A stretch of DNA of 64,000 nucleotides, from NCBI RefSeq assembly GCF_024502345.1, contig NZ_JALDNN010000001.1; one strand, 5' to 3'. Below the pieces are notes generated by a model, which saw nothing but the letters and a program-made list of their open reading frames with translations, was not told where the DNA came from and ran no database searches. Every line of letters starts with the position of its first letter. Position 1 is the stretch's first letter. The position numbers and the translations under genes are program-made. Shown here piece after piece: positions 23,381-60,253 of the stretch. This DNA comes from Escherichia coli (GTDB lineage: Bacteria > Pseudomonadota > Gammaproteobacteria > Enterobacterales > Enterobacteriaceae).

Positions 23381-24028
23381 GGCACTGTTGCAAATAGTCG
23401 GTGGTGATAAACTTATCATCCCCTTTTGCTGATGGAGCTGCACATGAACCCATTCAAAGGCCGGCATTTTCAGCGTGACATCATTCTGTGGGCCGTACGC
23501 TGGTACTGCAAATACGGCATCAGTTACCGTGAGCTGCAGGAGATGCTGGCTGAACGCGGAGTGAATGTCGATCACTCCACGATTTACCGCTGGGTTCAGC
23601 GTTATGCGCCTGAAATGGAAAAACGGCTGCGCTGGTACTGGCGTAACCCTTCCGATCTTTGCCCGTGGCACATGGATGAAACCTACGTGAAGGTCAATGG
23701 CCGCTGGGCGTATCTGTACCGGGCCGTCGACAGCCGGGGCCGCACTGTCGATTTTTATCTCTCCTCCCGTCGTAACAGCAAAGCTGCATACCGGTTTCTG
23801 GGTAAAATCCTCAACAACGTGAAGAAGTGGCAGATCCCGCGATTCATCAACACGGATAAAGCGCCCGCCTATGGTCGCGCGCTTGCTCTGCTCAAACGCG
23901 AAGGCCGGTGCCCGTCTGACGTTGAACACCGACAGATTAAGTACCGGAACAACGTGATTGAATGCGATCATGGCAAACTGAAACGGATAATCGGCGCCAC
24001 GCTGGGATTTAAATCCATGAAGACGGCT
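23381..24028 (+). mobile_element. IS26, 3'-truncated (left IR plus ~648 bp)
   Basis: Left IR GGCACTGTTGCAAA at 23381-23394; transposase matches IS26 Tnp to ...ATLGFKSMKTA, then sequence diverges; right IR absent. Confidence 0.85.
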
Positions 24029-24031
24029 TAA
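23444..24031 (+). pseudogene. tnpA: IS26 transposase, C-terminally truncated (195 of ~234 aa)
   Basis: MNPFKGRHFQRDIILWAVRWYCKYGISYRELQEMLAERGVNVDHSTIYRWVQRYAPEMEKRL...; stop created at junction. Confidence 0.8.
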
Positions 24032-24531
24032 CGGACATAACCTACATCAGGACCCACGAAGGCTGGCTGTATCTTGCCGTGGTGGTTGATCTGTTCTCAC
24101 GCAAAATTATCGGCTGGTCCATGCAATCCCGGATGACAAAGGACATTGTCCTGAACGCACTGCTGATGGCCGTATGGCGGCGTAATCCCCAAAAACAGGT
24201 GCTGGTTCATTCGGATCAGGGCAGTCAGTACACAAGCCATGAGTGGCAGTCGTTCCTGAAATCACACGGCCTGGAGGGCAGCATGAGCCGTCGCGGTAAT
24301 TGCCATGATAATGTGGTTGCAGAAAGCTTTTTCCAGTTGTTGAAACGCGAACGGATAAAGAAAAAGATCTACGGAACGCGGGAAGAAGCCCGCAGCGATA
24401 TTTTTGATTACATCGAAATGTTTTATAACAGTAAGCGTCGGCATGGTTCCAGCGATCAGATGTCACCGACAGAATATGAAAACCAGTATTATCAACGGCT
24501 CGGAAGTGTCTAGATTATCTGTGGCGATTCA
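24029..24531 (+). mobile_element. IS3-family orfB 3' fragment (~160 C-terminal codons) abutting truncated IS26
   Basis: Translation LTDITYIRTHEGWLYLAVVVDLFSRKIIGWSM...HSDQGSQYTS...SMSRRGNCHDNVVAESFF (DDE integrase core). Confidence 0.65.
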
Positions 24532-24546
24532 TATCTTGGAATATAA

Positions 24547-25017
24547 ATGTTAAAAAAATTAATAACTTTTTCTGCCATCCTGTGTACGGGACAAGCATGG
24601 GCTGCATGTGTGGATGGTGCAGCTGGCCCAAACGGCGTAGATAGTGCCACCGAAGGTAGTACCTGCGATAACAGCGGTACGTCATATATAGGGAATAATA
24701 CCGCTTATGCGAGCGGGTCAGGTTCTGTTCTTAATTTCTTACCTGGAACTGTAATCAGTAGTAATGGTGTTGCTGCCGTTTATACGCTTGCCGTGGGAGG
24801 AGTCAATAGTGGCGGTTCGATCCCTGGAGCTGGAGCAACGGTTCATGCAAAAGGAGATTTAACAGTTAATGGGAATGCTCTGGGCAGTACTCGGAGTATT
24901 TTTATCTTTTCTGGTACAGATGCAGGGGGAAAACGTAACTCACTTCAGATAGATGGAAACCTGACTGCAACGAGGACTGGCGGTCTTTATGGGGCTGTTA
25001 TAGGTGATAATGCCTGA
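24547..25017 (+). pseudogene. Autotransporter/adhesin-like secreted protein, N-terminal fragment (signal peptide plus Gly/Ser/Thr-rich beta-helix-like region)
   Basis: Signal peptide MLKKLITFSAILCTGQAWA followed by G/S/T/N-rich repeats; ORF ends where the antisense integrase fragment begins. Confidence 0.4.
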
Positions 25018-25548
25018 CTGGGCAGCATAGCGCATGATTGCAGTGATACGCTGCTGAAGGCGCGCTGCAATCTCATAAATCTCTTTGGCTTCGGCTGCCT
25101 TTACTGGAACAAGTAAATCGGGAGTTCTGAGGGTGGTAATGTCACGTGAACCGATAAAGGGAAACACATGAGTTTCTAGGCTTTTCAGTATCTTCTCACT
25201 ATGTGAGGCTGACCATTTTTTGTTGCTCTTATGCCACTGCCTTGCGATGCCTTCAAATGTCTGAGCTGTTTCGGGTACCGACTTTTTGATTCGTTTCTGT
25301 TCGCACGGGTCAGTTCCTTCAGCTATCTGCTTTCTCGCCGCATCGCGTTTTTCCCTTGCTTCTGATAACGAGACTTCAGGATAGACACCCAGGGCGAGCG
25401 TTTTCTCTTTGCCCAGAAACCGGTAGCGGAGTCGCCAGTAGCGCGAGCCGTTAGGGTGAACGAGCAAAAACATGTTGCCGCTGTCGGCAAGTTTATAAGG
25501 TTTTTCATCCGGTTTAGCTGCACGGATTTTAGCGTCAGTGAGCGCCAT
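25018..25548 (-). pseudogene. P4-type tyrosine integrase, N-terminal ~175 codons only (catalytic domain missing)
   Basis: MALTDAKIRAAKPDEKPYKLADSGNMFLLVHPNGSRYWRLRYRFLGKEKTLALGVYPEVSLSEAREKRDAARK matches P4/CP4 integrase N-termini; ~195 bp downstream of the tRNA-Phe terminator. Confidence 0.75.
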
Positions 25549-25704
25549 TGGCGGTATCTCCTGATAGTAAAAGGGGCATAAATTTTATCGAATCAGACTA
25601 TACCCTCAGTTGTACCCTCGCAAGGGGCTTGATGCGGGTAGAAGTTGATTGAGCTGGGTGGAGTTAATGGATTGAAGAGGTGTTGATTTCTGCGGGATTA
25701 GAAT

Positions 25705-25732
25705 GCAAAAACGGACCTCCGTGGAGGTCCGT
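25705..25732 (-). terminator. Rho-independent terminator downstream of tRNA-Phe
   Basis: Perfect hairpin acggacctcc-gt-ggaggtccgt followed on the minus strand by TTTTT. Confidence 0.6.
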
Positions 25733-25743
25733 TGATATGAATT

Positions 25744-25792
25744 TGGTGCCCGGACTCGGAATCGAACCAAGGACACGGGGATTTTCAATCCC
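25744..25792 (-). tRNA. tRNA-Phe (pheV/pheU type), 3'-terminal 49 nt only; island attachment-site remnant
   Basis: TGGTGCCCGGACTCGGAATCGAACCAAGGACACGGGGATTTTCAATCCC is the reverse complement of the tRNA-Phe 3' end including CCA; homology stops inside the anticodon arm. Confidence 0.8.
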
Positions 25793-26069
25793 TTTAAAAG
25801 AGCCCAAACGATCCATCAGCACTAACAGTTTTTTACTGGTTTACCTTGAGAAAAATGTTTAAGTTTGGTTCTTCATGACTTAAGTATTGCTTAAATACGG
25901 CGTTTCGAAGCTACCAGAATCCTACCATTATGAGCCTATACCCATAGAAGAGAAATTATCTCCCGTTCTCGCGATTCAATGACTAAAAATCAGACGGTGC
26001 AGGCTTTTAGATACTGATATTATATCTTTTGGGTAAAGTATTAATCTCTGTTGAGATAGGCTCTTAGCC

Positions 26070-26414
26070 CTAAAATAGCCGAGCAGCAAACGCCAAAACA
26101 ACAATACTAACATTACCATTAACTGTCGCGATGGTTCTGAGTCGATCGTCTTTAAGTGTTTTACCATCAAATGTTGCGATGGTGCGGAGTCGATCGTCTT
26201 TCAGGGTCTTGCCATCAAAGGTAGCGATGGTGCGGAGTCGGTCGTCTTTCAGGGTTTTACCGTCAAAAGTTGAGATGGTTCTGAGCCGGTCGTCTTTCAG
26301 GGTTTTACCGTCAAACGTTGCGATGGTCCTGAGCCGGTCGTCTTTCAGGGTTTTACCGTCAAAGGTAGCGATGGTACGGAGTCGATCGTCTTTTATAGTT
26401 ACGCTCATAAGCAT
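26070..26414 (-). CDS. Small protein made almost entirely of ~5.5 tandem 16-aa repeats (DGKTLKDDRLRTIATF)
   Basis: ATG at 26414 preceded by AGGAG at 7-nt spacing; the overlapping plus-strand ORF lacks an SD. Confidence 0.5.
   Translation of the reverse strand: MLMSVTIKDDRLRTIATFDGKTLKDDRLRTIATFDGKTLKDDRLRTISTFDGKTLKDDRLRTIATFDGKTLKDDRLRTIATFDGKTLKDDRLRTIATVNGNVSIVVLAFAARLF
26127..26395. repeat. 48-bp direct tandem repeat array, ~5.5 copies, slightly degenerate
   Basis: Unit cgatggtNNNgagNcgNtcgtctttcagggttttaccNtcaaaNgtNg repeated head-to-tail. Confidence 0.85.
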
Positions 26415-26629
26415 TCTCCTGTGATACGTCCGTTCAGCACTTTACCATCCAAAATCAAGCACTGGTTTCTGTGAGTTCTGGACGCTAATTGTCTGAATCA
26501 GCGATTAAAACTCATCCAGTTAGCATTAACATTAACCAGCGCCTCATCGATCATAACAGGTCTGATGCAGGTTAAAAGATACAATCTTACCCATAAATTG
26601 CGGTAGCGCATTGTTCTTTTATCTGACAT

Positions 26630-29600
26630 CTAGAGGTGTCCTCCAACCCCTTTAAATTTTTCGATAAATGCCCCAATTTTCTGGAATACAGTCTGCTTTT
26701 TCGTTTTGTACTGAGGATTCAGCGGACTGAGCTTTGGTAGCGTCTCATTTAGCTCCGTCCCATTTTCGGTGGCATACTCCCGTTTTAGTGATGTGCGGAT
26801 ATAGCGCCTTGCAGCCTCTTCATTGAGGTTTTCTTCCTTAATCAACGCCTCTGCTTCCCGTTGCTGTTCACGCTGAGCATAGGTAAAGAATGCATCAATG
26901 ATACTGGCCTTGTCCGGCATGTCATCAAGGTTAGTTTGCTGAATAAAGTCAACAATCAGACCTTCTTTGGCACGGTTGCCCAGACTTGAGCGGATTAAGC
27001 GTCTGACCTCTTCAGTCAGGGCTTCTTTACCTTTTTTCTGACGATTGTGGTCGAAAATCAGACCAAGGATGTAATCCAGGTTAATTTCCTGCGACTTCAG
27101 CAGGTCAATTTCAAACACCACGTCATCCCAGTCTGTGGTTGATTTATCCCTGTCGTTTGATGCTTTTTCGCGTCGCTGCCAGTCCCGGATATCATTGTAT
27201 GCTGAGCGATAGTCCTGAACTTTACGTTCTGCCGGGAGACGAATGGTTTGTAATTCAGCAAATTTTTCATCATCCACATAGTGCTCTGCTTTAAAGGTTT
27301 CTACCGCTTCCGGGTCACTAATATCAACCTTCTGCAGGGCTTTCAGCGTGGCAAATTCATCATAGTTTTGCAGGATGTTTTCTGCCCGCAGATATTCACC
27401 AAACAGTTTGACGAAGGCTTTTTTCTCTTTTTCACTGTCGATACTGGCAGGGTCAGGGAAGCGCTGCTCCAGCTCAGAGACAACAGCCATAAAACCTCGT
27501 TTAGCCTCACCGGTTGCCGCATCGGTAAAGCCCTGCATGTACTCTTCGTAGCTTTTTTCCAGCACCACATTCTTGGTGTTTTTGTCGCCGAAAAGTGTGA
27601 TGGCATCAATGGTCGGACGCTCCAGGTCCCTGAAAGTCACGATATTGCCGAAGGTTTTGGTTGCATCATAGATACGGTTGGTGCGTGAGAATGCCTGCAT
27701 CAGACCGTGATAACGCAGGTTTTTGTCAACGAACAGAGTATTGAGCGTCGGAGCATCAAAGCCAGTCAAGAACATTCCCACCACGATGAGAAGGTCAATA
27801 TCCTGATTTTTCACTCGTTGAGCTAAATCGCGGTAGTAGTTCTGGAAACCGTTACTGTCGGTGCTGAAATTGGTTTTAAAGTGGTTGTTATAGTCATCAA
27901 TGGCTGAATCCAGGAATTCCTTTGCGCTGCTGTTCATTGCACTGGTATCAAAACTTTCGTCGGTAATATCACCAATAGCGCTTTGCTCTTCATTAGCAGC
28001 AAAAGAGAAGATGGTTGCCACACGAAGACGTTTATAGCTGCCAGATTTCTTCTCAGCTTCTTCCTGTAGCATTTTAAATGTCGTGTAATAAGCTTTTGCC
28101 GCGTCCACGCTGCTCACTGCTAACATGGCATTGAAGCCTTTTGCTCCCGGGAAGGTACGATGCGTTTTCTGGCGGAAGTTATTGAGAATGTATTGCGTTA
28201 TTTCCTGGATACGCAGTGGGTGCAGAAAGGCCTGGTGGTTTTCAGCCGCGCTGAGTTTTTTCTCATCAGTTTCCGTTTCAAGAGACTTAAACTGTGGGCG
28301 GACATCGTTATAGTCCACCTTAAACTTCAGCACTTTTTCATCACGAATCGCATCAGTAATGACGTAAGAATGTAATTCACGCCCGAAGACGCTGGCGGTG
28401 GTTTCTGCCCCCAGTGCGTTTTCCGGGAAAATAGGTGTACCGGTAAAACCAAACTGATAAAAGCTTCTGAATTTCTTTTTGAGGTTTTTCTGGGCCTCAC
28501 CAAACTGGCTGCGGTGACACTCATCAAAGATAAACACAACCTGCTGCTGATAGACGGGCAGGTCAGCTTCGGCTTTCATCAGGTTATTGAGTTTCTGAAT
28601 GGTTGTGACGATAATTTTGTTATCGTCCTTATCCAGGTTTCTTCTGAGGCCAGCTGTATTATCCGAACCATTCACACTGTCCGGAGAGAAGCGCTGATAC
28701 TCCTTCATGGTCTGGTAATCGAGGTCTTTCCTGTCGACCACGAAGAAGACTTTATCAATAAAGTCCAGCTCGGTTGCCAGACGTGCGGCCTTAAAACTGG
28801 TCAACGTTTTACCGCTACCTGTGGTATGCCAGATAAACCCGCCGCTTTCGGGTTTTGACCAGTTCTTCGCTTTAAATGAGCTGTTAATTTTCCAGAGGAT
28901 TCGCTCAGTGGCAGCAATCTGATAGGGGCGCATGACGAGCAGCGTCTGGCTGCTGTCAAACACGCTGTAATTAAACAGAACATTCAGCAGAGTATGCTTC
29001 TGGAAGAAAGTGGCGGTAAAGTCCTTCAGGTCCTTAATCAGAGTGTTATCCGACTTTGCCCAGTTCATGGTGAAATCAAAGCTATTTTTATCCCGTTTAG
29101 TGGTACTGGCAAAGTACCGGGTATCAGTCCCGTTGGAAATCACGAAGAGTTGCAGGTATTTAAACAGGGAGTTATCGCTGTTAAAGCTTTCCTTGCTGTA
29201 ACGGTGTATCTGGTTAAAGGCTTCACGAATCGCCACACCGCGTTTTTTGAGTTCGATTTGCACCAGTGGAAGGCCGTTGACCAGAATGGTGACGTCATAA
29301 CGGTTAGCGTGTGAGCCAGTCTGCTCAAACTGCTGAATGACCTGCACCTTATTGCGCAGCAGGTTCTTTTTATCTATCAGATAGATGTTTTCCAGACGAC
29401 CATCATCAAACGTAAAATCACAGATATAGTCGATATGGATTTTACGGGTTTTGTCCAGGCTGCTGTCACTGGGACTGTCCAGATACTGCTCTGCGAAGCG
29501 CCGCCATTCACTTTCGTTAAACACCACACCATTAAGACGCTGAAGCTGGTCTCGCACATTCGCCAGCATCGCAGCCGGTGACTTAACGGAGATAAACTCA

Positions 29601-29746
29601 TACCCCTGATTAAGAAGGTCTTGAATCAGCTCCCGCTCAAGGTCCGATTCGCTCTGGTAACTCTCACCAGTTTCCTGAGCTTTAGAGTACTTATCAAGGA
29701 CGATAAAGTTATTGGATTCAGCAATAGTATGTGTCTGTTGTGTCAT
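26630..29746 (-). CDS. hsdR: Type I restriction enzyme R subunit (HsdR)
   Basis: 1038 aa; DEAD/DEAH-type helicase motifs (TGSGKT, DECH) in an HsdR-like architecture. Confidence 0.9.
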
Positions 29747-29861
29747 GGTGCATCCTGTGCGTCATCTGGCAAAGTCCGGAAGGGTATCAGAAACATCATC
29801 CGGCACTCGTAAAGCCTGATACCGGTAGGTGAAAGCAGACACTGCCGGTATCAGTGGCCTG

Positions 29862-31087
<1,226 letters not shown>

Positions 31088-31091
<4 letters not shown>

Positions 31092-32644
31092 TTCTGCACC
31101 TCGCAGCCTTCAATTTCAGCCACAATCGCATCAATATCTTTGCGCAACTGGTCGATTTTGCTGACCGTGGTTTTCAGCTCTGCATTCAACTCAGCGATAT
31201 CGATAATTTCGCGAGTATCTTTCGCTTCCACATAGCTGCTCACCGACAGGTTATAGTCATTCGCGACAACAGTCTCAAACGCAACAGATTTCGCCAGATG
31301 AGCAACATCTTCCTTGCTGGCAAATACCTGCATAATTTGTTCGATATGGGCATCGGTCAGGATATTGTTGTTGGTCTCTTTTTTGAATAGTTCACTGGCG
31401 TCAATAAACTGAACTTTGGTATCGGTTTTATGTTTAGACAACACCAGAATATTGACGGCAATAGTGGTGCCAAAGAACAGGTTCGGTGCCAGTGAAATCA
31501 CGGTTTCGACATAGTTATTGTCAACCAGGTACTGTCGGATTTTCTGCTCTGCACCGCCACGGTAAAAAATACCGGGGAAGCAAACTATTGCTGCACGCCC
31601 TTTAGCAGACAGGTAGTTCAGCGCATGTAGGACAAATGCAAAGTCCGCTTTTGATTTCGGGGCCAGTACACCAGCTGGAGCAAAGCGCTCATCGTTAATC
31701 AGGGTCGGGTCGTCACTGCCAATCCACTTAACCGAGTACGGCGGGTTAGAGACAATCGCATCGAACGGTTTTTCATCGCCAAAGTGAGGCTCAGTCAGGG
31801 TATTCCCCAGTCTGATATCAAATTTGTCGTAGTTGATGTTGTGCAGGAACATGTTCATACGCGCCAGGTTAAAGGTTGTATGATTTATCTCCTGACCATA
31901 AAAACCTTCTTCAATGATATGGTTATCAAAGTGCTTCTTCGCCTGAAGCAGCAGTGAACCAGAGCCAGCGGCAGGGTCATAGATTTTGTTGACGTGAGTC
32001 TGACCGTGCATCGCAAGCTGAGCAATCAGCTTGGAGACGTGCTGAGGTGTGAAGAACTCCCCTCCAGACTTACCGGCATTTGCCGCATAGTTAGAAATCA
32101 GGAACTCGTAGGCATCACCAAACAGGTCAATCTGGTGCTCGTTAAAATTCCCCAGGTTAAGCCCTTCAACGCCTTTCAGAACGGCGGCAAGACGGCTGTT
32201 TTTGTCTTTAACTGTGTTACCCAGTCGATTGCTGGTCGTATCGAAATCGGCGAACAGGCCTTTGATGTCGGCCTCGGACGGATAGCCGTAGGCAGAGCTT
32301 TCTATAGCGACGAAGATACTATTTAAATCAGCATTCAGCCTGTCGTTGGTGTTCGCTTTAGCGGCAACGTTGCAGAACAGCTGGCTCGGGTAGATGAAAT
32401 AGCCTTTAGTCCTGATGGCATCGTCTTTGATGTCATCGGTAATGATGCTGTCATCAAGTGCTGCATAATGTATGCTCTCATCCCCTGCTTCCATGTAGCT
32501 GGAAAAATTCTCACTGATGAAGCGGTAGAAAAGTGCACCGAGTACATACTGTTTAAAATCCCATCCATCTACTGAGCCCCTGACATCATTGGCAATGGCC
32601 CAGATTTGACGGTGTAGCTCTGCACGCTGTTGAAGGCTTGTCAT
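31088..32644 (-). CDS. hsdM: Type I R-M N6-adenine DNA methyltransferase subunit (HsdM)
   Basis: 518 aa with NPPY catalytic motif ([10 protein letters not shown]); stop overlaps hsdS start. Confidence 0.9.
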
Positions 32645-32847
32645 TTTGTATCCTGTTGTATGATTCTTAAGTACTGTTATTGGCCCGATTTTATCGCAAT
32701 TTCATATGGATGACAGGCTTTGTATGTCATGCGTTGCACTGAGAGTTCGTTTGCCCGGTTGTGTAGCCAACACTCTTTCAGTCAGGCCAGTAGAAACGTT
32801 GCGCTGACGATAAATACTGAAGCCCCAATACCATCGGGGCTGAACGT

Positions 32848-34725: not shown

Positions 34726-34786
34726 ATGTTATATTAGCTGGCCTATTTTAATTTATTGCGTGTCGGTAGTACAGTCTTTGCACAAA

Positions 34787-48281: not shown

Positions 48282-48293
48282 GGAGCAGGAACA

Positions 48294-49764: not shown

Positions 49765-49774
49765 TGCATAAAAA

Positions 49775-49800
49775 AGAGCATTCAGCTACCTGAATGCTCT
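49775..49800. terminator. Hairpin between convergent appA and etk ends
   Basis: Perfect 11-bp inverted repeat agagcattcag-ctac-ctgaatgctct. Confidence 0.45.
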
Positions 49801-49830
49801 GAGGCTGATGACAAACGAAGAACTGTCTAA

Positions 49831-49870
49831 TGCGTAGACCGGAAAAGGCGTTCACGCCGCATCCGGTCAC
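49831..49870. repeat. REP (repetitive extragenic palindromic) element
   Basis: tgcgtagaccggaaaaggcgttcacgccgcatccggtcac resembles the E. coli REP consensus. Confidence 0.5.
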
Positions 49871-49883
49871 TTTACCTTCAGTT

Positions 49884-50578
49884 TTACTCTTTCTCGGAGT
49901 AACTATAACCGTAATAGTTATAGCCGTAACTGTAAGCGGTGCTGGCGCGTTTAATCACACCATTGAGGATAGCGCCTTTAATATTGACGCCTGCCTGTTC
50001 CAGACGCTGCATTGACAAGCTCACCTCTTTGGCGGTGTTCAGGCCAAAACGCGCAACCAGCAGGCTGGTGCCGACAGAGCGCCCCACGACCGCAGCATCG
50101 CTCACCGCCAGCATCGGCGGCGTATCGACAATCACCAGATCGTAATGGTCGTTCGCCCATTCCAGTAATTGACGCATCCGATCGCGCATCAGCAGTTCAG
50201 ACGGGTTAGGTGGCATCTGACCGCGAGTAATCACATCAAAGCCTCCTTTGCCAAAATGCTGGATCACTTTGTTGAGCTCATCTTTACCTGCCAGATATTC
50301 CGACAAGCCATGTGCATTACTCACGGTAAACAGGTTATGCGAATAACCATGGCGTAAGTCGGCATCAATAAATAACACTTTTTGATCGGACTGGGCGATC
50401 ACCGCTGCCAGAGTTGAACTGACAAATGTTTTACCACTGTCTGGCGTCGCACCGGTGATCATCAGAATGTTATTCTCAGTCTCCATCATAGCGAAATGCA
50501 GACTGGTTCGTAGCGCACGTACGGCTTCCACAGCAGAATCCGCCGGGTTATCCACCGCCAGGAAGGGGATATTTTTAG
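49884..50578 (-). pseudogene. etk: Tyrosine-protein kinase Etk/Wzc family, C-terminal ~230 codons only; 5' part removed at the IS5 junction
   Basis: Walker A/B kinase domain (GATPDSGKTFVSSTLAAV, DLVIVDTPP) and Tyr-rich tail YSYGYNYYGYSYSEKE; reading frame runs into the IS5 end at 50579. Confidence 0.75.
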
Positions 50579-51773
<1,195 letters not shown>

Positions 51774-52368
51774 CAAGAGAACGCAACAGCGCACTTGCTT
51801 TGCCACAGTTGAATTTTGTGCCGTAACGATGTGCAAGCATGTAAGCATAAGGAGTCAAGGTATAGCGTGTTACTTAGTTACTCGGATTAACAATCCCAAC
51901 GTACAGAGCGGCGGATTTACAGAGTCAGCGCAGTCCCTGCTCCGGCAGTCAGTGGCAGGCGGCGTACTGAAGCAAACCATTATCGATACCGGCATCGGCG
52001 ATACCATCGGCATGCTGATGTCACACGGCAATATTTCTCCCTACATCATGGCGTGGTTGATAACCGTGCTGATCCGTCTGGCAACGGGTCAGGGCGTGGT
52101 CTCAGCCATGACGGCGGCGGGGATTATTAGCGCAGCAATCCTCGACCCGGCAACCGGTCAACTGGTGGGCGTCGACCCGGCGTTGCTGGTGCTGGCAACA
52201 GCGGCTGGCTCCAACACGCTGACCCATATCAACGATGCTTCGTTCTGGCTGTTCAAAGGCTACTTTGATCTGTCGGTGAAGGATACGCTGAAAACCTGGG
52301 GTCTGCTGGAGCTGGTAAACTCCGTGGTTGGCCTGATAATCGTGTTGATCATCAGCATGATTGCATAA
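51774..52368 (+). pseudogene. GntP-family permease, C-terminal fragment
   Basis: ...[44 protein letters not shown]...[27 protein letters not shown]; 5' boundary not resolved, upstream frame runs into IS5. Confidence 0.55.
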
Positions 52369-52417
52369 CGTTGATACCGCTCTGGCCCACAGCGCCAGAG
52401 CGGTTTTCCATCCTGCC

Positions 52418-53113
52418 TCAACAATCCTCAATAATCAGATATACCGCCTTCACCGGACCATGCACCCCAACCACCTTGATAAGCTCAATATCCGCCGTCG
52501 AGCTGGGTCCACTGATGATATTAATGCACGATGGCATACGCTCACCGGCCTGTGCTTTCTGATGCAGTTTTTCTGCCAGCTGCGCCACGCGCGGCAGGAT
52601 GGTGCTTTTACGCAGCACGAAAATAGAGGACTCCGGCAACAGGCTCAGGGAGCGCCCGCGCTCCGGTGCGGAAAACAGCACCACGCCGCCGGACTCGGTC
52701 AGGCCATATTCGGCATACACCACGCCGACTTTCGCCTGCTCGGCCTGGGTAATATTTTCGCTACCACGCGCCGGATCCCAGACCACGGCGTTGCATTCCT
52801 GCTGCAAGCGTTCGGTGATGCCCAGCTCCACCAGCCGGCTGTCGCCGCTCAGCACCACCGGCTGCTGACCCAATTCTTCGCACAGGCGCAGTGCCGCGTC
52901 TGCGGCCTGGTCCTCGCTGGTCAGTTCGCAGCGGGCCAGCATCACTTCGCTGGCAAACTGGATAAACGCAGAGCAGCGCTGCTCGGGGCTAAGCTCGGTC
53001 AGGCGCTCGTTGGCATAGTTGTTAACCGGTGCGGCATCCGCTTGCGGTTCGAAGCGCAGCGGGCGACCCAGCGCCTGGGCGATGGTGTTTAAAAACGCGG
53101 TACGGTTATCCAT
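52418..53113 (-). CDS. ykgG: LutC-like lactate utilization protein YkgG
   Basis: 231 aa from MDNRTAFLNTIAQALGRPL; overlaps ykgF stop. Confidence 0.85.
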   Translation of the reverse strand: MDNRTAFLNTIAQALGRPLRFEPQADAAPVNNYANERLTELSPEQRCSAFIQFASEVMLARCELTSEDQAADAALRLCEELGQQPVVLSGDSRLVELGITERLQQECNAVVWDPARGSENITQAEQAKVGVVYAEYGLTESGGVVLFSAPERGRSLSLLPESSIFVLRKSTILPRVAQLAEKLHQKAQAGERMPSCINIISGPSSTADIELIKVVGVHGPVKAVYLIIEDC

Positions 53114-54533
53114 TCTTTTTCTCCTGCGCCTGATGTTTCTTAAACCAGCTGCGGAAGCTCTCGCCGTCAGCATCAGGCAGATCGCGCGCCTCCATCCAGT
53201 CACCAATCGCGCCAACCTTGAGCGGGGTTTTGCCGCCATTGATAAACCAGCTCGCCGCATGCGCGCCCGCCATCATCCCGACTTTCCACAGCCCCGGATG
53301 GCTATTGGCATAGGCGAACATCTTGATCGCCCGTCGCTCGGCTTTCGGCGTAATGCCCTCCTCGGCCATCACCCGGCGATGACGCAGGATCAGTTTTGAC
53401 AACGGAATACGCACCGGGCAGACGCTGTCACAAGCCGTGCACAAAGAACAGGCGTACGGCAGGTCTTTAAAATCTTTATAGCCGCCGAGCAGCGGAGAAA
53501 TCACCGCGCCGATAGGGCCGGGATAGATAGAGCCATAGCCGTGCCCGCCGATGTGGCGGTACGCCGGACAGGTGTTCATACAGGCTCCGCAGCGGATGCA
53601 GCGCAGCACATCGCGAAACTCTGAGCCCAGCACCTGCGAGCGACCGTTATCGACAATCACCAGATGGAACTCTTCCGGTCCGTCAACGTTGTCCGCCTCA
53701 CGCGGGCCGGTCAGCCAGGTGTTGTAGCCCGTCAGACGTGCGCCCACGGCGCTGCGCGCCAGCATGGTAATCAGCACATCCACCTCGGCAAAGGTCGGCG
53801 CGATACGCTCCATGCCCATCACCGCAATGTGCGTTTTCGGTAGCGTGGTGCACATGCGCGCGTTGCCTTCGTTGGTCACCAGACACACCGAGCCGGTTTC
53901 CGCCACGGCAAAGTTACAGCCAGTAATACCGATTTCGGCACTGAGGAAATCCTCGCGGATCTTCTGACGAATGAACAAGGTCATAGCTTCCGGGGTTTCC
54001 GGGCCGTCGTACCCCAGACGTTCGTTCAGCACGCGGCGGATCTGGTAGCGATCTTTATGAATCGCCGGAACCACGACGTGCGAAGGCGGATCCTGATCCA
54101 ACTGCAGGATATATTCCCCGAGATCGGTTTCGATCACCTGGATTCCGGCATCCTGCAACACATGGTTGACGCTGATTTCTTCGGTCACCATCGACTTGGA
54201 CTTCACCACCTTCTGCGCATTTTTACTCTGCGCGACCTGCAAAATGTAGCGAGTGGCATCTTCTTTGGTTTTGGCGAAATAGACGTGTCCGCCGTTTTCC
54301 GTCACTTTCTCGGAGAGTTGGTACAGGTAAGCGTCGAGGTTGCTCAGAACGTGATCGCGGATCTGGCTGGCACGATCGCGCCATTCTTCCCAGTGGCCTA
54401 ACTCATCGACCATTTTTTGCCGATTCGCGCCGATACGCTCCTGCGCATTAGCCACGGCTTTGCGCATAATCGGATCTTCTATCTGCTGACGAATACGCAG
54501 TTTAAATTCTACATCGCTGGTTTTTATCGACAT
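53106..54533 (-). CDS. ykgF: LutB-like iron-sulfur lactate utilization protein YkgF
   Basis: 475 aa with two CxxCxxCxxxCP ferredoxin motifs. Confidence 0.85.
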   Translation of the reverse strand: MSIKTSDVEFKLRIRQQIEDPIMRKAVANAQERIGANRQKMVDELGHWEEWRDRASQIRDHVLSNLDAYLYQLSEKVTENGGHVYFAKTKEDATRYILQVAQSKNAQKVVKSKSMVTEEISVNHVLQDAGIQVIETDLGEYILQLDQDPPSHVVVPAIHKDRYQIRRVLNERLGYDGPETPEAMTLFIRQKIREDFLSAEIGITGCNFAVAETGSVCLVTNEGNARMCTTLPKTHIAVMGMERIAPTFAEVDVLITMLARSAVGARLTGYNTWLTGPREADNVDGPEEFHLVIVDNGRSQVLGSEFRDVLRCIRCGACMNTCPAYRHIGGHGYGSIYPGPIGAVISPLLGGYKDFKDLPYACSLCTACDSVCPVRIPLSKLILRHRRVMAEEGITPKAERRAIKMFAYANSHPGLWKVGMMAGAHAASWFINGGKTPLKVGAIGDWMEARDLPDADGESFRSWFKKHQAQEKKNG

Positions 54534-54543
54534 CTCTTTCCCC

Positions 54544-55263
54544 TCAGCGGCTCATCAGCACTTCAGCAATATGCATCACTTTGACCGGCTGGCCTTCCCG
54601 TTGCAGTCGACCGCCAATGTTCAGCAGGCAGCTAACGTCTGCGCCAATCAAAAATTCCGGCTTTGCGTCCATCAGATGTAATACTTTCTCTTTCACCATC
54701 TCACCGGATATCTCGGCCATCTTGACCGAGAACGTCCCGCCAAAGCCGCAACAGGTATCCTGATCGGCAAACGTCAACAGCTCCAGTCCGCGCACGTTTT
54801 TCAGCAGCGTAAGCGGCTCTTCCTTCACTCCCAGTTTGCGGGTCAGGCTACAGGAAGGATGATACACAGCGCGGCCCTGCAGGCTGGCACCAACGTCCAC
54901 CACACCCAGTTTGTTGACGATAAAGGAGGTGAGATCCTGCATACGCGCGGAAACTTTCTCAGCACGCAGCGCCCATTCCGGTTCATCGGCCAGATACGTC
55001 GGGTAGCTTTTAACCGCGTAGGTGCAGGAGCCCGCCGGGGAGATAATCGGATCGTCGTTGTCTTCCAGCGCGGCGATCAGGTTTTTCATCCCGGGGATCG
55101 CCTCTTTGATGTAACCGCTGTTGATGGCTGGCTGACCGCAACACCCTTGCTTCTCGGGGAAATTAACGCGACAACCCAGTTTTTCCAGCAGCAATACGGA
55201 GTCTCGTGCCATCCGTGATTTCAGTGCGTCACCAATACAGGTGACAAAGAAATTTACATTCAC
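54544..55263 (-). CDS. ykgE: LutA-like Fe-S oxidoreductase YkgE (cysteine-rich domain)
   Basis: 239 aa MNVNFFVTCIGDALKSRMARDSVLLLEKLGCRV... with CCG motifs. Confidence 0.85.
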   Translation of the reverse strand: MNVNFFVTCIGDALKSRMARDSVLLLEKLGCRVNFPEKQGCCGQPAINSGYIKEAIPGMKNLIAALEDNDDPIISPAGSCTYAVKSYPTYLADEPEWALRAEKVSARMQDLTSFIVNKLGVVDVGASLQGRAVYHPSCSLTRKLGVKEEPLTLLKNVRGLELLTFADQDTCCGFGGTFSVKMAEISGEMVKEKVLHLMDAKPEFLIGADVSCLLNIGGRLQREGQPVKVMHIAEVLMSR

Positions 55264-55337
55264 AATAACTACTCCATTGCTTCATTTCTGTTTATTGCGC
55301 TTGATATCGCGATATCAAACAAATGTTCATTCGTATT

Positions 55338-57035
55338 TCATGCCCAGTTTTTATGTTTGCTGGTTTTACCAATACCTGGGTTCATAGTGTTGGTCGGATC
55401 ATTTTCCTGATAAAAACGTGCCAAATTTTCCGGCGCTTTATACAGATGGCCGACATTGTGTTCCGCCGGATATTGCGCTCCGCGTTGGCGCAGTAATTCC
55501 AGCATCTGTTCTTTTAACGCGTGGGCATCTACGCCTTTTTTAACGATATAATCCTGATGGAATACATGGCACATAAAATGGCCGTAATAGAGTTTATGCA
55601 CCAACTGACTGTCAATTTCCGCCGGTAAATGCTCATACCATTCGGTATCATTGCGGCGTAATGCAATATCCAGCGCGAGAATATCCTCAACCTCGTCAGA
55701 ATGAACGGCCTGATAACGAATGGCAGCACCCGCGGCGGCAAAACGATGCAGAAACGCCTTACTGCCCTCTTCCGCGGTACAGGTAAAGAACGCGCCCTCG
55801 GCCGATTTAAAATAGTCCGTTAACCATGCCTGGGCTTCGGCCACACCCTCACCGGACATTTTCAACATCAGATGGTGTTCATAGTTATCGCGCCAGGTCT
55901 TCATCCGCGCCGGGAGATGGCTCGGGAACAGATGGCTAAAAGCCTGCATCGCGCGGTCGGTAAAGTGCGGGCGAAAGATCTTCACCTTCTCAAGTATGGC
56001 CTCGGTACGCCCCTTCAGGTTGAAGAAGAACGGCATTTTGTCCGTGCCAAGTTTGTCGATCATCAGGAAGGTATCTTTGCTGTATTTCTCTGCAATATCA
56101 TAGATATCGCGGTGCATATACTCCCCAGCAACCGGCAGGTTTGTAAAATTCGCCAGGATGTGGCGGCGAATCTCAGTCAGGACATCAGTCTGATTGGTAC
56201 CGATATAAAAGACCTGCTGGTTCTTCTCGGCTTCAAAGGTATCCAGACGTACGGCAAACACCGCTAACTTGCCCGCACAGCCAGAGGATTCAAACAGGCG
56301 ATCCGGGTCAGCGTTGTAACGTGCTGGCGTGTCGGCATTGATGTCCCGCACGCGGCTAACATAGTCGTGATCGTGCGCGTGACGCCCGTCATGGTTGACG
56401 AGCACGGCTTCAATCGCATTGTTATCCAGCCGGGCAAGGATTTGCTCTGGCGTCTGACCTAGCTCAATGCCGAGGTGATTGACCAGCTGCAAGCGTCCCT
56501 GTTCATCAATACGGGCAAACAGCGACATCTCGGTATAAGCCGGGCCACGCTGGACCAGAGAACCGCCGGAGTTATTACAGATACCGCCGATAACCGACGC
56601 GCCGATGCACGAAGAGCCAATCACCGAATGCGGCTCACGGCCAAACGGCTTCAGCGCCTTTTCCAGCGAATACAGCGTGGTGCCCGGATAAGCCAGCACC
56701 TGCTTACCCTCATCCAGCACATGCAGACTGTCCAGCCGCAGCGTGCTGATAATGACGATCTCGCGGTCGTAATCATTACCATTGGGCGTCGAACCCTCAG
56801 TCAGGCCAGTGTTCGACGCCTGCATCAGGATTATTTTATCGGCCTCAACGCAGGCGCTAAGGACTTTCCAGAGTTCAAGCAAAGAGCCGGGGATAACCAC
56901 CGCCAGAGCATCACCCTGACCCGAGCGAAAACCCTTACGGTAACGCGCAGTTTTTGACGGTTCGGTGAGGATATGAGCAGGGCCAACCAATTGGGTAAGA
57001 GTTGTCAAAAAGGTCTTATTATCAGTATGTTTCAT
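55338..57035 (-). CDS. FAD-dependent D-lactate dehydrogenase, Dld paralog
   Basis: ~565 aa from MKHTDNKTFLTTLTQLVGPAHILTEPSKTARYRKGFRSGQGDALAVV; ORF-track start at 57083 is probably an extension. Confidence 0.8.
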   Translation of the reverse strand: MKHTDNKTFLTTLTQLVGPAHILTEPSKTARYRKGFRSGQGDALAVVIPGSLLELWKVLSACVEADKIILMQASNTGLTEGSTPNGNDYDREIVIISTLRLDSLHVLDEGKQVLAYPGTTLYSLEKALKPFGREPHSVIGSSCIGASVIGGICNNSGGSLVQRGPAYTEMSLFARIDEQGRLQLVNHLGIELGQTPEQILARLDNNAIEAVLVNHDGRHAHDHDYVSRVRDINADTPARYNADPDRLFESSGCAGKLAVFAVRLDTFEAEKNQQVFYIGTNQTDVLTEIRRHILANFTNLPVAGEYMHRDIYDIAEKYSKDTFLMIDKLGTDKMPFFFNLKGRTEAILEKVKIFRPHFTDRAMQAFSHLFPSHLPARMKTWRDNYEHHLMLKMSGEGVAEAQAWLTDYFKSAEGAFFTCTAEEGSKAFLHRFAAAGAAIRYQAVHSDEVEDILALDIALRRNDTEWYEHLPAEIDSQLVHKLYYGHFMCHVFHQDYIVKKGVDAHALKEQMLELLRQRGAQYPAEHNVGHLYKAPENLARFYQENDPTNTMNPGIGKTSKHKNWA

Positions 57036-57470
57036 GGAGGGCGGCTCTCCGCTCCTTATATCAGGGCCAGTGAAAATGGCCATAAGTTCATTTGTACGAC
57101 AAAACAGAATATTCCCTCAATCAATATCCACATGCAATACCCCATTTTATTTCTTTCGGCACCGCTCACATTTTTTAATGAAATTACCACTACCACATAA
57201 TTCATACTCCGTTCTTTTACTGGATGCCAAAACGCTTATTTCATTTATTGCAAAGACCATTTCATACCTATTAATGATTAACTCTAATGGGTATTATTAT
57301 ATTTAGTGGTTATTCATGTTTAATAAAAAAATAACATTATTTATACAATTATTAACCTTTGTAACTTTATTTCACTGAAGCGATTCAGTTTGCATTTTTT
57401 ATTTTATTATTAAGGTAGCCTCCTTCCCCCTAAATATAGTTAAGTCTAAAAAAGTAAATCGGGAATTGTA

Positions 57471-59024
57471 ATGCACGAATATTTAATGTTTGCTCTGGCA
57501 CTCTCTCCTTTGCTGCTGATGGTATTTTTAATACTGAAATTAAAAATGCCCATCCATTATTCCGTACTGATCTCTTTGGTATTCACTGCTGCACTATCGG
57601 CAATATTCTGGGAAATGCCCACACAGAATCTGAAAGCCGCGATAGGCTATGGTGCACTGAAGGGACTATGGCCGATCGTAATTGTTATCCTCGGCGCTAT
57701 CTTCAGTTATAACGTCATGCAGGCGACCAAAGCGCTGGATATTCTGCGCGATATTCTCGCCAGCATTAGCGAAGATAAGCGTATTCAGGTGCTGCTGATT
57801 TCATGGTGTTTTGGTGGATTTCTTGAAGCCGCTGCGGGCTATGGCACGGCGGTCGCTATTCCGATCGGTATTCTCATTGCGCTGGGATTCAACCCGTTGA
57901 AGGCGGCGATTGCTTCCCTCGTAGCAAATACCGTTCCGACCGCATTTGGCGCGGTTGGGATCCCGGTTTCTATTCTGGCAGAGCAGGTTAATCTGCCGGT
58001 TTATACCTTAGGCGGAACCATTATTTTGCAGCTCGCGCTGTTTAATATCCTGCTGCCGTTTGTGATTGTCTGCATTATTGGCGGTGGCCTGAAAGCCATT
58101 CGCGGCGTATTTCTGATCACGTTGATTTGCGGCATTTCCACGCTGGTTCCGCAATATTTTGTCGCCATCCATCTTGGCGCGGAATTACCCGCCTTTGCCG
58201 GTAGCCTGGTCAGCCTGTTTGCCGTGGCGATGGTCAGTCGCCTGCGCAAAGGGAAAACCGATCCCGAGTGGCGCATTGAGGTCAGCCATACCCGCGAAAC
58301 CACGCCGCGCTCGGCAAAAGTGTTGTTCCGGGTTGGCTCTATTTATCTGTTTATTTTTGTGTTTATCCTGCTGTGTTCGCCGCTGTTCCCGACAATAAAA
58401 GGCGCGGCATCCCAACTGGCTTCGGTGCTGCATTTCCCGTTGGCTGACGGCAAAACGATGGCGCTGAAAGTTGAATGGGCGACCACACCGGGGATGCTGA
58501 TCATCTTTGCGACCATTATCGGCGGTTTTATTCAGGGAGCGTCCGCACGTGGGATGCTGGAAGTATTTATCAAAACGATTTTCCAGCTTAAAAACTCTAT
58601 CGTCGCAATTATGGCGATCGTCGCGCTGGCCACGGTGATGGATCTCAGCGGGATTATCTCCACGCTGGCCCAGTCGATTGTCGATCTGACCGGCAGCTCG
58701 TACGTCTTCCTCGCCCCGGTGATTGGCGCGCTGGGCACGTTCGTGACCGGCAGCGATACCAACTCGAACATTCTGTTCGGCAAGCTGCAAACCATTGCCG
58801 CCAGCAAGTTACATATCGATCCTAACTGGCTGGCGGCGGCCAATACCTCTGGCGCTACGGGGGGGAAAATGATTTCGCCGCAAAGCATCGCCATCGCAGT
58901 TTCTGCCACCAAAATGGACGGTCAGGCCAACCAGATTATGTCTGGCACCATGAAATACTGCTGCGCCTACATTGTGATCCTCGGCCTGAAAGTCGGTCTG
59001 TTTTATTACTGGTTTATGGCGTAA
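57471..59024 (+). CDS. L-lactate permease family transporter (LctP)
   Basis: 517-aa multi-TM protein with LctP-family C-terminal block TGSDTNSNILFGKLQ...[13 protein letters not shown]; divergent from the dld-like gene. Confidence 0.8.
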   Translation: MHEYLMFALALSPLLLMVFLILKLKMPIHYSVLISLVFTAALSAIFWEMPTQNLKAAIGYGALKGLWPIVIVILGAIFSYNVMQATKALDILRDILASISEDKRIQVLLISWCFGGFLEAAAGYGTAVAIPIGILIALGFNPLKAAIASLVANTVPTAFGAVGIPVSILAEQVNLPVYTLGGTIILQLALFNILLPFVIVCIIGGGLKAIRGVFLITLICGISTLVPQYFVAIHLGAELPAFAGSLVSLFAVAMVSRLRKGKTDPEWRIEVSHTRETTPRSAKVLFRVGSIYLFIFVFILLCSPLFPTIKGAASQLASVLHFPLADGKTMALKVEWATTPGMLIIFATIIGGFIQGASARGMLEVFIKTIFQLKNSIVAIMAIVALATVMDLSGIISTLAQSIVDLTGSSYVFLAPVIGALGTFVTGSDTNSNILFGKLQTIAASKLHIDPNWLAAANTSGATGGKMISPQSIAIAVSATKMDGQANQIMSGTMKYCCAYIVILGLKVGLFYYWFMA

Positions 59025-59281
59025 ACCATTGTCAACCCCGTCAAATTCGCGGCAATCGAATTTGACGACATAGTGACCAAAAAGGTTTGCACCGCCCCGG
59101 GAACGGAACGAGGCAACAGACTTTACGATTTGTCGGCGCTGACTAAAATAGCGCCGATGTTTCAAATCGAGGATTGTTGTTATGTTGTTCTGGAAAAAGA
59201 TGGTGAAGAAGTTCGACGCCTTTTCCGGTGATGCTGCCAACTTACTGATTTAGTGTATGATGGTGTTTTTGAGGTGCTCCA

Positions 59282-59557
59282 GTGGCTTCTGTTTCTATCA
59301 GCTGTCCCTCCTGTTCAGCTACTGACGGGGTGGTGCGTAACGGCAAAAGCACCGCCGGACATCAGCGCTATCTCTGCTCTCACTGCCGTAAAACATGGCA
59401 ACTGCAGTTCACTTACACCGCTTCTCAACCCGGTACGCACCAGAAAATCATTGATATGGCCATGAATGGCGTTGGATGCCGGGCAACCGCCCGCATTATG
59501 GGCGTTGGCCTCAACACGATTTTCCGCCATTTAAAAAACTCAGGCCGCAGTCGGTAA
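59282..59557 (+). CDS. insA: IS1 InsA
   Basis: 91 aa [43 protein letters not shown]... Confidence 0.85.
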
Positions 59558-59979
59558 CCTCGCGCATACAGCCGGGCAGTGACGTCATCGTCTGCGCGGA
59601 AATGGACGAACAGTGGGGATACGTCGGGGCTAAATCGCGCCAGCGCTGGCTGTTTTACGCGTATGACAGGCTCCGGAAGACGGTTGTTGCGCACGTATTC
59701 GGTGAACGCACTATGGCGACGCTGGGGCGTCTTATGAGCCTGCTGTCACCCTTTGACGTGGTGATATGGATGACGGATGGCTGGCCGCTGTATGAATCCC
59801 GCCTGAAGGGAAAGCTGCACGTAATCAGCAAGCGATATACGCAGCGAATTGAGCGGCATAACCTGAATCTGAGGCAGCACCTGGCACGGCTGGGACGGAA
59901 GTCGCTGTCGTTCTCAAAATCGGTGGAGCTGCATGACAAAGTCATCGGGCATTATCTGAACATAAAACACTATCAATAA
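59476..59979 (+). CDS. insB: IS1 InsB (made as InsAB' by programmed frameshift)
   Basis: 167-aa overlapping ORF, typical IS1 organisation. Confidence 0.8.
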
Positions 59980-60253
59980 GTTGGAGTCATTACCGACCGG
60001 GTTAAACCGGAAATGCGACACCTCGGAAGTGTCTCCTGAAAACCTTTCATCAGTACGCTCATCATGCTGTTCATAGAGTAGTCCAAATACAGTACCGTAC
60101 AGTACGGTACGTTTTATATCTTGACTTCTGAGCGCCGTCAAATGAAAATGTACTCGTCAGTACGATTACGAACCCTACTATCTGACGTGATTCCGAAATC
60201 TGAGAACAAAAAGTGTTGGCCCCGGCCAGACACCTAAACTAACGAGGAAACAT

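Follow-up and report, generated by a model that had tools for sequence, protein, structure and literature searches.

A densely broken region beside glc-sslE in Escherichia coli is very probably a tandem array of tRNA-Phe islands eroded in steps by insertion sequences and small deletions

The DNA considered here is a stretch of 64,000 nucleotides from the Escherichia coli contig NZ_JALDNN010000001.1, referred to in full as the window, in which the glc-sslE neighbourhood is followed by a region so heavily broken that the integrity of the sequence is in doubt. An initial annotation, made from the sequence alone, had counted at least eleven truncated genes or insertion sequence (IS) fragments, and had proposed either extreme, Shigella-like decay mediated by IS elements or a mis-assembled or engineered sequence. 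The question raised by the locus is whether its junctions are genuine and, if they are, how such a density of breakpoints came about. In all probability three tRNA-Phe islands stand here in tandem next to glc-sslE, a real and inherited array that was immobilised and then eroded stepwise by IS elements and small deletions.

The segments were mapped by local BLAST against the annotated sequences of G3/10, EC596, F11, C 236-04A, OY754834, ET220, 2022CK-00450 and AH04. Base-level mapping against the relatives placed at least 16 truncated genes or IS fragments (marked by a prime) between 20.2 and 52.4 kb, so the earlier count was borne out and extended. The breakpoints cluster in the island array, and positions 1-20510 and 44630-64000 were collinear with relatives (2022CK-00450 and G3/10, respectively). 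The first 20510 bases hold the yghO-glcC-glcDEFGBA-glcA-sslE neighbourhood, which we take to be the pheV side of the chromosome at about 3.12 Mb on the K-12 map, and the broken region starts at 20510. Collinear with both strains, this stretch was 99.6% identical to EC596 and 98.1-98.9% identical to 2022CK-00450, where an additional IS1 is the sole difference. The glc-glcA-sslE' flank is thus present and collinear with relatives, while pheV and yqgA lie outside the window, and no intact tRNA was found within the 64 kb.

Three islands follow the flank. Island C (20.5-25.8 kb) is a module with a methyl-accepting chemotaxis protein (MCP) gene and IS26 that ends in a truncated P4-type integrase gene, intP4', and an attachment (att) repeat. 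Island B (25.8-39.16 kb) is a defence island that runs from a beta-flower gene through hsdRSM, GmrSD and a helix-turn-helix (HTH) gene to a recombinase gene and DUF927'. Island A (39.16-50.6 kb) is a CP4-like element with app/etk cargo, and the ykg locus follows it. Directly upstream of intP4' lies a 49-nt remnant of the 3' end of tRNA-Phe (25744-25792, minus strand). Sequence reading and a direct-repeat scan showed that this remnant contains a 23-bp att direct repeat, TTCGATTCCGAGTCCGGGCACCA (25744-25766, minus strand), identical to the att reported for the island GI-pheV (PMC11537424, Table 1). The remnant with its repeat is the boundary between two tandem islands. The draft genome GCA_050022275.1 agreed fully with the window as far as the repeat edge at 25766 and then continued into different DNA, where a putative ParE-like gene can be read. 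Cargo that diverges exactly at the att edge is expected if different islands use one att site, and together with the repeat it suggests that the three islands would have entered at tRNA-Phe att sites next to glc-sslE by site-specific tandem integration. The tRNA-Phe island locus is a known plasticity hotspot (PMC11537424); the region probably belongs to this hotspot and is biologically ordinary.

Eight junctions in the region are IS-less: sslE'/IS30' at 20510, IS30'/tnp' at 20720, IS26'/IS3' at 24030, hyp'/intP4' at 25000, the DUF3944 scar at 36296, DUF927'/DUF5983' at 39162, cbtA'/WYL' at 39597 and DeoR'/appC' at 46173. Three of them (sslE-IS30, IS26-IS3 and HTH fragment-appC) had been listed in the initial annotation and all three were confirmed, with five more added. 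They had also been called unusual, a view that did not survive the mapping: they are ordinary microhomology deletions, and DeoR'/appC' is an old junction carried by 16 complete genomes. The seven that could be aligned share microhomologies of 4, 3, 2, 5, 2, 2 and 5 bp; random joins would show 2 bp or more at every one of the seven with a probability of approximately 2e-6. On established knowledge, microhomology at such junctions points to RecA-independent illegitimate recombination, by slippage, template switching or end joining.

The right half of the array is supported by complete genomes. The right 24 kb were 99.96-100% identical to G3/10 and collinear with it except at the IS903B site (44630-64000, 99.96%). 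The same block was found in G3/10, in an ST536 strain from mussel (deposited twice), in 2022CK-00450, in C 236-04A and in 1368KP, with 96% cover and 99.6-100% identity outside G3/10. The five complete genomes that carry the right half are independent of one another, with origins in Germany, the USA, Denmark and shellfish.

For the left half, chimeric open reading frames (ORFs) that span the junctions were translated and looked up as exact sequences in large public protein and contig collections. Nine of the ten were present, and the contigs that encode them matched the window at 99.9-100%. The 132-aa chimeric ORF of sslE' was found in independent assemblies. Contig L016 of GCA_050022275.1 equals window positions 10203-23457 at 100%, with both sslE'/IS30' and IS30'/tnp' inside it, and the same pair of junctions was spanned by L039 (GCA_050023715.1) and L040. 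The 80-aa chimeric ORF of the 20719-23380 segment was indexed in 36 collection blocks (24 contigs read), and contig L009 of GCA_050022275.1 spans 23954-25766. The 202-aa ORF across hyp'/intP4' occurred in 13 contigs, and the 10 places among the matches listed came from 10 different samples; the metagenome contigs L006 (24861-35342) and L007 (24861-31182) were 99.9% identical to the window. Further to the right, the 97-aa ORF of the DUF3944 scar was present in 13 contigs, including drafts under KUG accessions, the 231-aa ORF of DUF927' in 5 contigs from 5 samples, and the 216-aa WYL' in 4 other contigs, which retain a whole DUF5983; contigs L048-L051 cover the WYL' junction. A single Logan contig, L018 (ERR14375843), spans 31493-39724 at 99.96% and holds three IS-less junctions.

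The isolate drafts that carry parts of the left half were GCA_050022275.1, GCA_050023715.1, GCA_001484235.1 and GCA_001484085.1, and the other sources were Logan assemblies of separate SRA runs and gut-metagenome contigs built with MEGAHIT or SPAdes. Two candidate sequences were set aside. P0014, which has 132 aa and clusters with the sslE' chimera, is an ordinary sslE fragment that continues as native sslE past the junction point, and the 195-aa truncated IS26 transposase, present in 67 contigs, is consistent with ordinary partial calls at contig ends. Every junction except the two ends of IS903B recurs in independent contigs or complete genomes. The supporting contigs were produced by different assemblers and stop k-1 bases inside repeats, which is how genuine junctions beside multicopy IS behave in short-read assemblies.

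The positions of the junctions, their microhomologies and their occurrence in independent assemblies were observed directly, as were intermediate states in sister strains, which indicate that the decay was stepwise. Metagenome contigs of ERZ27268145 carry the sslE'/IS30', hyp'/intP4' and cbtA'/WYL' junctions and keep a whole DUF5983, DUF957, DUF4942 and attR, followed by two cargo genes, and have no IS903B. Contig L048 overlaps L023, in which the P4 integrase gene follows. The drafts GCA_001484235.1 and GCA_001484085.1 have the DUF3944 scar and a longer DUF927' beside the P4 integrase gene. The succession of these steps, and the molecular mechanism behind each deletion or inversion, we infer as follows. 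The DUF3944 and cbtA-ypjK deletions would be early. A deletion of ~5.4 kb would have come next, fusing DUF927' to DUF5983' and removing the integrase and att of island B, and the insertion of IS903B with loss of 347 adjacent bp would be last. The microhomology events would comprise deletions of 2.8, 3.5, ~5.4 and ~17 kb and the local scramble of island C, and recombination between IS copies would have joined etk' of island A to the gntP'-ykg-dld-lldP locus via ISKpn26.

The three complete IS elements were said in the initial annotation to lack target duplications, and this was upheld for each of them. IS903B (43573-44629, plus strand) is complete, with 1057 bp and 18-bp inverted repeats, and has no 9-bp duplication. 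Relatives have kept 347 bp in its place, with an AlpA-type HTH gene among them; the empty site was seen in G3/10 and in contigs L048-L050, and IS903B was not found at this site in any complete genome searched. ISKpn26, of the IS5 family (50579-51773, minus strand), is complete and flanked by TTAG and CAAG, with no 4-bp duplication. IS1 (59227-59994, plus strand) is complete at 768 bp and has no 9-bp duplication. As positive controls, the method recovered a 9-bp duplication at an IS1 in 2022CK-00450 (L036) and a 4-bp duplication at an IS5 in OY754834 (L034), so the negative result for the three elements in the window is meaningful.

The flanks of ISKpn26 and IS1 differ between strains. The left flank of ISKpn26 is etk' in 12 genomes and yahM in AH04, which has the same right flank, and its right flank is gntP' in the window and HTH-RelE in the second G3/10 copy, which has the same etk' left flank. 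The left flank of IS1 is constant and its right flanks differ between lineages (TetR side or afuC' side), and matches in the CX strains, AH04 and others end at the right end of IS1. In AH04 the ISKpn26-gntP'-ykgGFE-dld-lldP-IS1 unit lies in the native yah/prp-mmu setting with other outer flanks. Because the relatives have other flanks on one side, ISKpn26 and IS1 act as joints for lineage-specific DNA, which accounts for the missing duplications; for IS903B the inferred loss of the adjoining 347 bp would account for it. Between the two elements lie a gntP' remnant (51955-52368, plus strand) and, up to 59024, intact ykgG-ykgF-ykgE and dld on the minus strand and an intact L-lactate permease gene on the plus strand. 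The ykgEFG genes are of the lutABC type for lactate utilisation and stand with the dld-like D-lactate dehydrogenase and L-lactate permease genes at 52418-59024; this unit, bracketed by ISKpn26 and IS1, recurs in many lineages with different outer flanks.

Several points weigh against the array of eroded islands as proposed. 1) No complete RefSeq E. coli genome is collinear with the left half, so the 40 kb are continuous only through contigs of different samples that overlap; comparison with the closest complete genomes, which had been suggested as a check, came out well for the right half, collinear in five, and failed for the left half. 2) The interior of IS26 (23458-23953) is spanned by no independent contig. 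3) The two IS903B junctions have no independent confirmation. 4) Two different DUF927 junctions, one to DUF4102/intP4 in some drafts and one to DUF5983 in the window, cut the gene within 4 bp of one nucleotide (window position 39164; F11 locus L003, 23867-23871; L023, ~3404); the younger deletion seems to begin at the older scar, and the coincidence may be due to chance, to a fragile site or to an ancestor wrongly chosen. 5) Of the proposed IS5-mediated rearrangement, the reciprocal products (pheV-int...etk 5' part-IS5) did not turn up. 6) The right half adjoins cadC, on the pheU side, in C 236-04A (L033, 4.43-4.47 Mb), and this differing backbone context makes the large-scale history more complicated than a single inversion. 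The block from the CP4-like island through app', ISKpn26 and ykg to hemB adjoins yghD or pitB, on the pheV side, in 2022CK-00450 and G3/10. One block beside the pheU side in one strain and the pheV side in others argues for large rearrangements between the two tRNA-Phe sites within one lineage. A simple inversion from pheV to ykg as the whole large-scale story is only partly tenable, given the position of the block beside cadC/pheU in C 236-04A.

Island A begins with a remnant flanked by two deletions, through which the defence island and the CP4-like island became fused. It consists of the N-terminal part of DUF5983 and the C-terminal part of cbtA (39159-39604, minus strand) and was 99.3% identical to G3/10 and 2022CK-00450. 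The WYL' regulator gene (39590-40228, minus strand) lacks its last 21 codons and is followed, up to 43572 on the minus strand, by intact genes for a DUF932 protein, a GTPase and a 308-aa hypothetical protein; positions 39590-43572 were 100% identical to G3/10. The cbtA'/WYL' junction marks a deletion of ~3.5 kb from cbtA to ypjK with a 5-bp microhomology (GGGTA), a value that on proper alignment replaced an overlap of 15 bp taken from BLAST coordinates. Beyond IS903B, the block at 45025-49764 starts with a Gp2/YagK-family gene (plus strand, by the G3/10 annotation) and a DeoR' remnant (45960-46028, plus strand). An island-borne copy of appC'-appB-cbdX-appA then runs to 49764 on the plus strand, with appC' (46174-47133) missing its N-terminus, and etk' (49884-50576, minus strand), the C-terminal 230 codons of a tyrosine kinase gene, is cut by ISKpn26.

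The assignment of segments to distant K-12 loci, made in the initial annotation, holds only in part: the app/etk genes are an extra, island-borne copy and not the K-12 app locus moved from its place. A translocated K-12 locus was rejected on two grounds, a longer form of the island in OY754834 and a native appC kept in other genomes. The DeoR'/appC' junction, where appC homology begins at window position 46173, was found in 16 of 5426 complete genomes, and the etk'/ISKpn26 junction in 12 of the same 5426. The appC-internal part of the junction probe alone was matched in 5403 of the 5419 matching genomes; among the matches listed, all ten appC-internal ones were to an intact appC at a single place per genome, with 92.9-98.9% identity. 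G3/10 has four places that match the probe.

In OY754834 the intact form reads sslE'...attR-DUF4942...WYL...Gp2-appC'BA-etk-etp-gfcEDCBA, followed by IS5, an integrase gene, pheV and yqgA. This arrangement is older than that of 2022CK-00450, in which the backbone glc-sslE-gsp-yghD-attR (a G-less variant) leads into DUF4942-DUF957-DUF5983-CbtA-YafW-...-WYL-DUF932-GTPase-hyp-HTH-Gp2 and continues as appC'BA-etk'-ISKpn26-gntP'-ykgGFE-dld-lldP-IS1. G3/10 carries two copies of Gp2'-appC'-appB-appA-etk'-ISKpn26 about 38 kb apart (L004, 13656-21354, and L001, 17316-24064), one of them with an IS30 between appB and appA that has a 2-bp duplication. Two copies in one genome mark the app/etk cargo as a repeated, rearrangement-prone unit.

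Island B matches an island in F11 that is bounded by two att repeats, at ~95-99% identity. The defence cargo (26070-35870, minus strand) is intact throughout and ~95% identical to and collinear with the F11 island. Its ORFs encode a 5-fold beta-flower protein, hsdR (1038 aa), hsdS (409 aa), hsdM (518 aa), a DUF262/GmrSD protein (625 aa), a 109-aa hypothetical protein and an HTH regulator (237 aa). The 5-fold beta-flower gene (26113-26393) is self-similar at 48-bp offsets with 83-87% identity, that is, it contains short tandem coding repeats. Next to the cargo, the C-terminal part of DUF3944 (35973-36296, minus strand) abuts the N-terminal part of a gene for a 117-aa hypothetical protein (hyp', 36296-36562, minus strand), and 36295/36296 is the scar of a 2.76-kb IS-less deletion with 2 bp of microhomology (between 18246 and 21003 of F11 locus L003). 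An intact tyrosine recombinase gene of 440 codons (37082-38404, plus strand) and DUF927', the first 229 of 643 codons (38477-39164, plus strand), complete the island; 37082-39164 showed 99.06% identity to F11 up to 39164.

Other samples have different genes in the same setting. In the gut-metagenome contigs L008 and L027 the island flanks (the slot at window positions 25804-34790) enclose an M78 peptidase-HTH pair and Multi_ubiq/ThiF(E1)/BubE, so that a Bil-like ubiquitin-type cassette replaces beta-flower-hsdRSM-GmrSD and the cargo at this position is exchangeable. The defence island has a further variable slot, flanked by the att repeat and the P4 integrase gene, which is wholly lost in the window; this second slot contains SIR2 and a 667-aa protein in F11 (L003, 27167-30132) and genes for 472-aa and 71-aa proteins in other samples (L023, 35-1897; L048, 7683-9372).

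Island C comes directly after sslE' (20203-20510, plus strand), which retains the initial 308 bp of the gene for the SslE metalloprotease (4.56 kb; NCBIfam NF037973 residues 1-104) and is collinear with C 236-04A and 2022CK-00450 as far as base 20510; the remainder of sslE, the entire gsp cluster for the type II secretion system T2SS-beta and yghD are missing from the window. There follows an internal fragment of IS30 (20507-20721, plus strand; 215 bp, IS30 nt 392-606), which has an IS end on neither side, is a 100% match to the IS30 of G3/10 and C 236-04A, and has microhomologies of 4 bp (TAAC) and 3 bp (TAC) at its two junctions. The block 20719-23380 is inverted relative to glc when set against C 236-04A, with 99.97% identity. 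On the minus strand, it holds an IS3-family orfA' remnant (~20719-20998; gene 20684-20926), a gene for a 105-aa hypothetical protein and an intact gene for a 560-aa MCP (21400-23082). Of the 820 bp of IS26, nt 1-650 remain as IS26' (23381-24030, plus strand), with an intact terminal repeat at 23381, on the side of the transposase start codon; the transposase is cut at codon 195, and the junction to IS3' shares 2 bp. The next segment (24031-25001) was 98.97% identical to C 236-04A (locus L005, 18301-17329) and consists of a 3' fragment of an IS3-family orfB (24031-24546, plus strand; NF033516 positions 237-369) and the first 151 codons of a gene for a 392-aa secreted hypothetical protein (hyp', 24547-25001, plus strand). 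A 5-bp microhomology (GTTAT) joins it to intP4' (24997-25548, minus strand), the N-terminal 184 codons of the P4-type integrase (NF007246, E=7e-32); the integrase beside pheV in C 236-04A matched it at 99.87% identity.

Large E. coli plasmids of 191-304 kb contain segments with 98.8-99.4% identity to the tnp'-hypothetical-MCP-IS26 module (20719-24030), which an IS66 element splits in some chromosomes; this suggests, as far as sequence similarity goes, IS26-associated traffic between plasmids and the pheV island.

As judged from the alignments, island C reads as a scramble of a C 236-04A-like island, with the segment order, in the coordinates of the C 236-04A locus, 27714, then 19545 to 19331, 20001 to 23312 (inverted), 18301 to 17329 and 11611 to 10816. 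That the five-segment scramble at 20.5-25.8 kb arose in one microhomology-mediated event, by serial template switching or by shattering and rejoining, is unlikely. The arrangement does invite the idea: four junctions are packed into 5.3 kb, all segments come from at most 17 kb of a C 236-04A-like island with order and orientation mixed, one segment is only 215 bp long, each junction has 2-5 bp of microhomology, and no sample with only some of the four junctions was seen among the contigs examined. However, segments D and E are single-copy in the isolate GCA_050022275.1, where contig L009 runs through, so the process was conservative rather than duplicative and duplicative template switching is weakened as a candidate. 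The neighbouring junctions at 36-39.6 kb are demonstrably stepwise, an inversion between two IS30 copies followed by two deletions gives the identical outcome, and scaffold L038 has IS30'/tnp' in a different context. We consider it quite unlikely that the whole series from sslE' through the 215-bp IS30 core, the inverted tnp'-MCP-IS26' and IS3'-hyp' to intP4'-att is a single complex rearrangement of this kind. If it were, it would be a natural bacterial counterpart of eukaryotic chromoanasynthesis or chromothripsis-like events, one that became fixed in a lineage of commensal E. coli and can be traced in gut metagenomes.

A second alternative is that the window samples a chromosome in genome-wide reductive evolution of the Shigella type, with massive IS expansion and pseudogenisation. 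Three IS elements without duplications and ~16 broken genes in 40 kb would fit this, in the close relative G3/10 the etk'/ISKpn26 probe matches 24 places and the pheV region is duplicated and riddled with IS elements, and the source chromosome measures ~4.74 Mb. The breaks, however, are confined to the island array: positions 1-20510 and, except for IS1, 52418-64000 are collinear with relatives and their genes intact, and most of the genes that are broken belong to IS elements, serve mobility or stand at the edge of an island. The probe matches only 3-11 places in the other relatives, so that the whole range is 3-24 and not hundreds, and the same locus is IS-scarred in many unrelated, ordinary E. 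coli, such as EC596, ET220 and OY754834. Genome-wide reduction is therefore very improbable. Of the decay first proposed, the involvement of IS elements stands, as three recombination or deletion joints and as three IS fragments that mark older events, but its extreme, Shigella-like character is not supported. The first interpretation is in this sense partly supported: as far as one 64-kb window shows, IS elements did bring about decay, but locally and together with deletions at microhomologies.

Mis-assembly, in which the contig is a chimera of unrelated pieces joined at repeats, would fit the lack of a complete RefSeq genome with the left half in this order, the gaps in independent support at IS903B and the IS26 interior, and the abundance of IS26, IS30, IS3, IS5, IS1 and CP4-like modules, which are multicopy repeats where assemblers err. 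Yet most junctions lie away from repeat edges, in unique sequence or within IS bodies, with overlaps of 2-5 bp, the same junctions recur at 99.9-100% across samples and assemblers (SPAdes-like drafts, Logan and MEGAHIT k119-141), and five complete genomes, independent of one another, have an identical right half; the chance of such an artefact is slight. An engineered construct, a mosaic built or modified in the laboratory, is suggested only by a superficial look of many short fragments of different loci joined without IS ends and has next to no probability, since the window has no FRT, loxP, Gateway att (attB1), T7, lacO, I-SceI or Tn5-ME motif within 3 mismatches (the sole motif matches being two 3-mismatch chance matches to an M13 primer), every component is a natural E. 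coli island or IS sequence, and the same junctions occur in human-gut metagenomes and in isolates of several projects, including PRJEB10878 and PRJEB15371. Neither of these two suspicions, both voiced in the initial annotation, held up.

The contig is thus trustworthy, and its breakpoint density reflects a known plasticity hotspot. A stepwise-eroded tandem array makes the region a well-resolved example of the fixation of tRNA islands, in which mobility genes and att sites are lost via IS events and microhomology deletions. The defence cargo stays intact during the erosion, and intermediate stages can be recovered from public isolates and metagenomes. The exact look-up of junction-spanning chimeric ORFs is a cheap and reusable validation of suspicious joins when reads are unavailable.

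The CP4-like modules of K-12 (CP4-6, CP4-44 and CP4-57) we take to comprise YkfA/YfjP GTPase, YafZ/DUF932, YfjR/WYL, antirestriction, RadC/JAB and YeeU-CbtA type IV toxin-antitoxin genes. Island A resembles them through the order kept in its relatives, DUF4942-DUF957-DUF5983-CbtA-YafW-DUF987-JAB-antirestriction-DUF905-YkfB-YafY-YpjK-WYL-DUF932-GTPase. It differs in that the window lacks the CbtA-to-YpjK part (~3.5 kb) and the DUF4942-DUF957 end, and in that it bears the appC'BA-etk' cargo, which the K-12 elements are not known to carry.

Shigella genomes are known for rearrangement and reduction mediated by IS elements. The window is similar in that IS elements without duplications mark deletions and recombination between IS copies, and truncated genes abut IS ends; in contrast, its damage is local to one island array, half of the junctions have no IS end, and the flanking core genes, like hsdRSM and GmrSD of the defence cargo, are intact. 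Defence islands with exchangeable cargo at integration hotspots are an established concept of the anti-phage defence literature, and island B, with intact hsdRSM and a GmrSD-like nuclease between conserved flanks and with cargo swapped in other samples, is nothing new in kind, except that the window copy has lost its own integrase and att site and is presumably immobile.

A further comparison is with GI-pheV, a highly diverse mosaic in which modules are separated by IS elements and which evolves by insertion, deletion and recombination, with attR absent from 34% of the islands studied (PMC11537424). The array likewise lies beside glc-sslE, has a P4-type integrase gene next to the identical 23-bp tRNA-Phe repeat, is a mosaic of modules bounded by IS30', IS26', IS3', IS903B, ISKpn26 and IS1 with cargo that differs between samples, and has lost att sites and modules by deletion. 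Unlike GI-pheV, the window stacks three islands in tandem, its integrase gene is truncated, and pheV and yqgA are not in it; the ykg-dld-lldP locus has, via ISKpn26, taken the place of that end of the oldest island which lay nearer pheV, and the cargo consists of defence genes (type I restriction-modification and GmrSD) and an extra app/etk copy rather than the virulence genes of uropathogenic E. coli.

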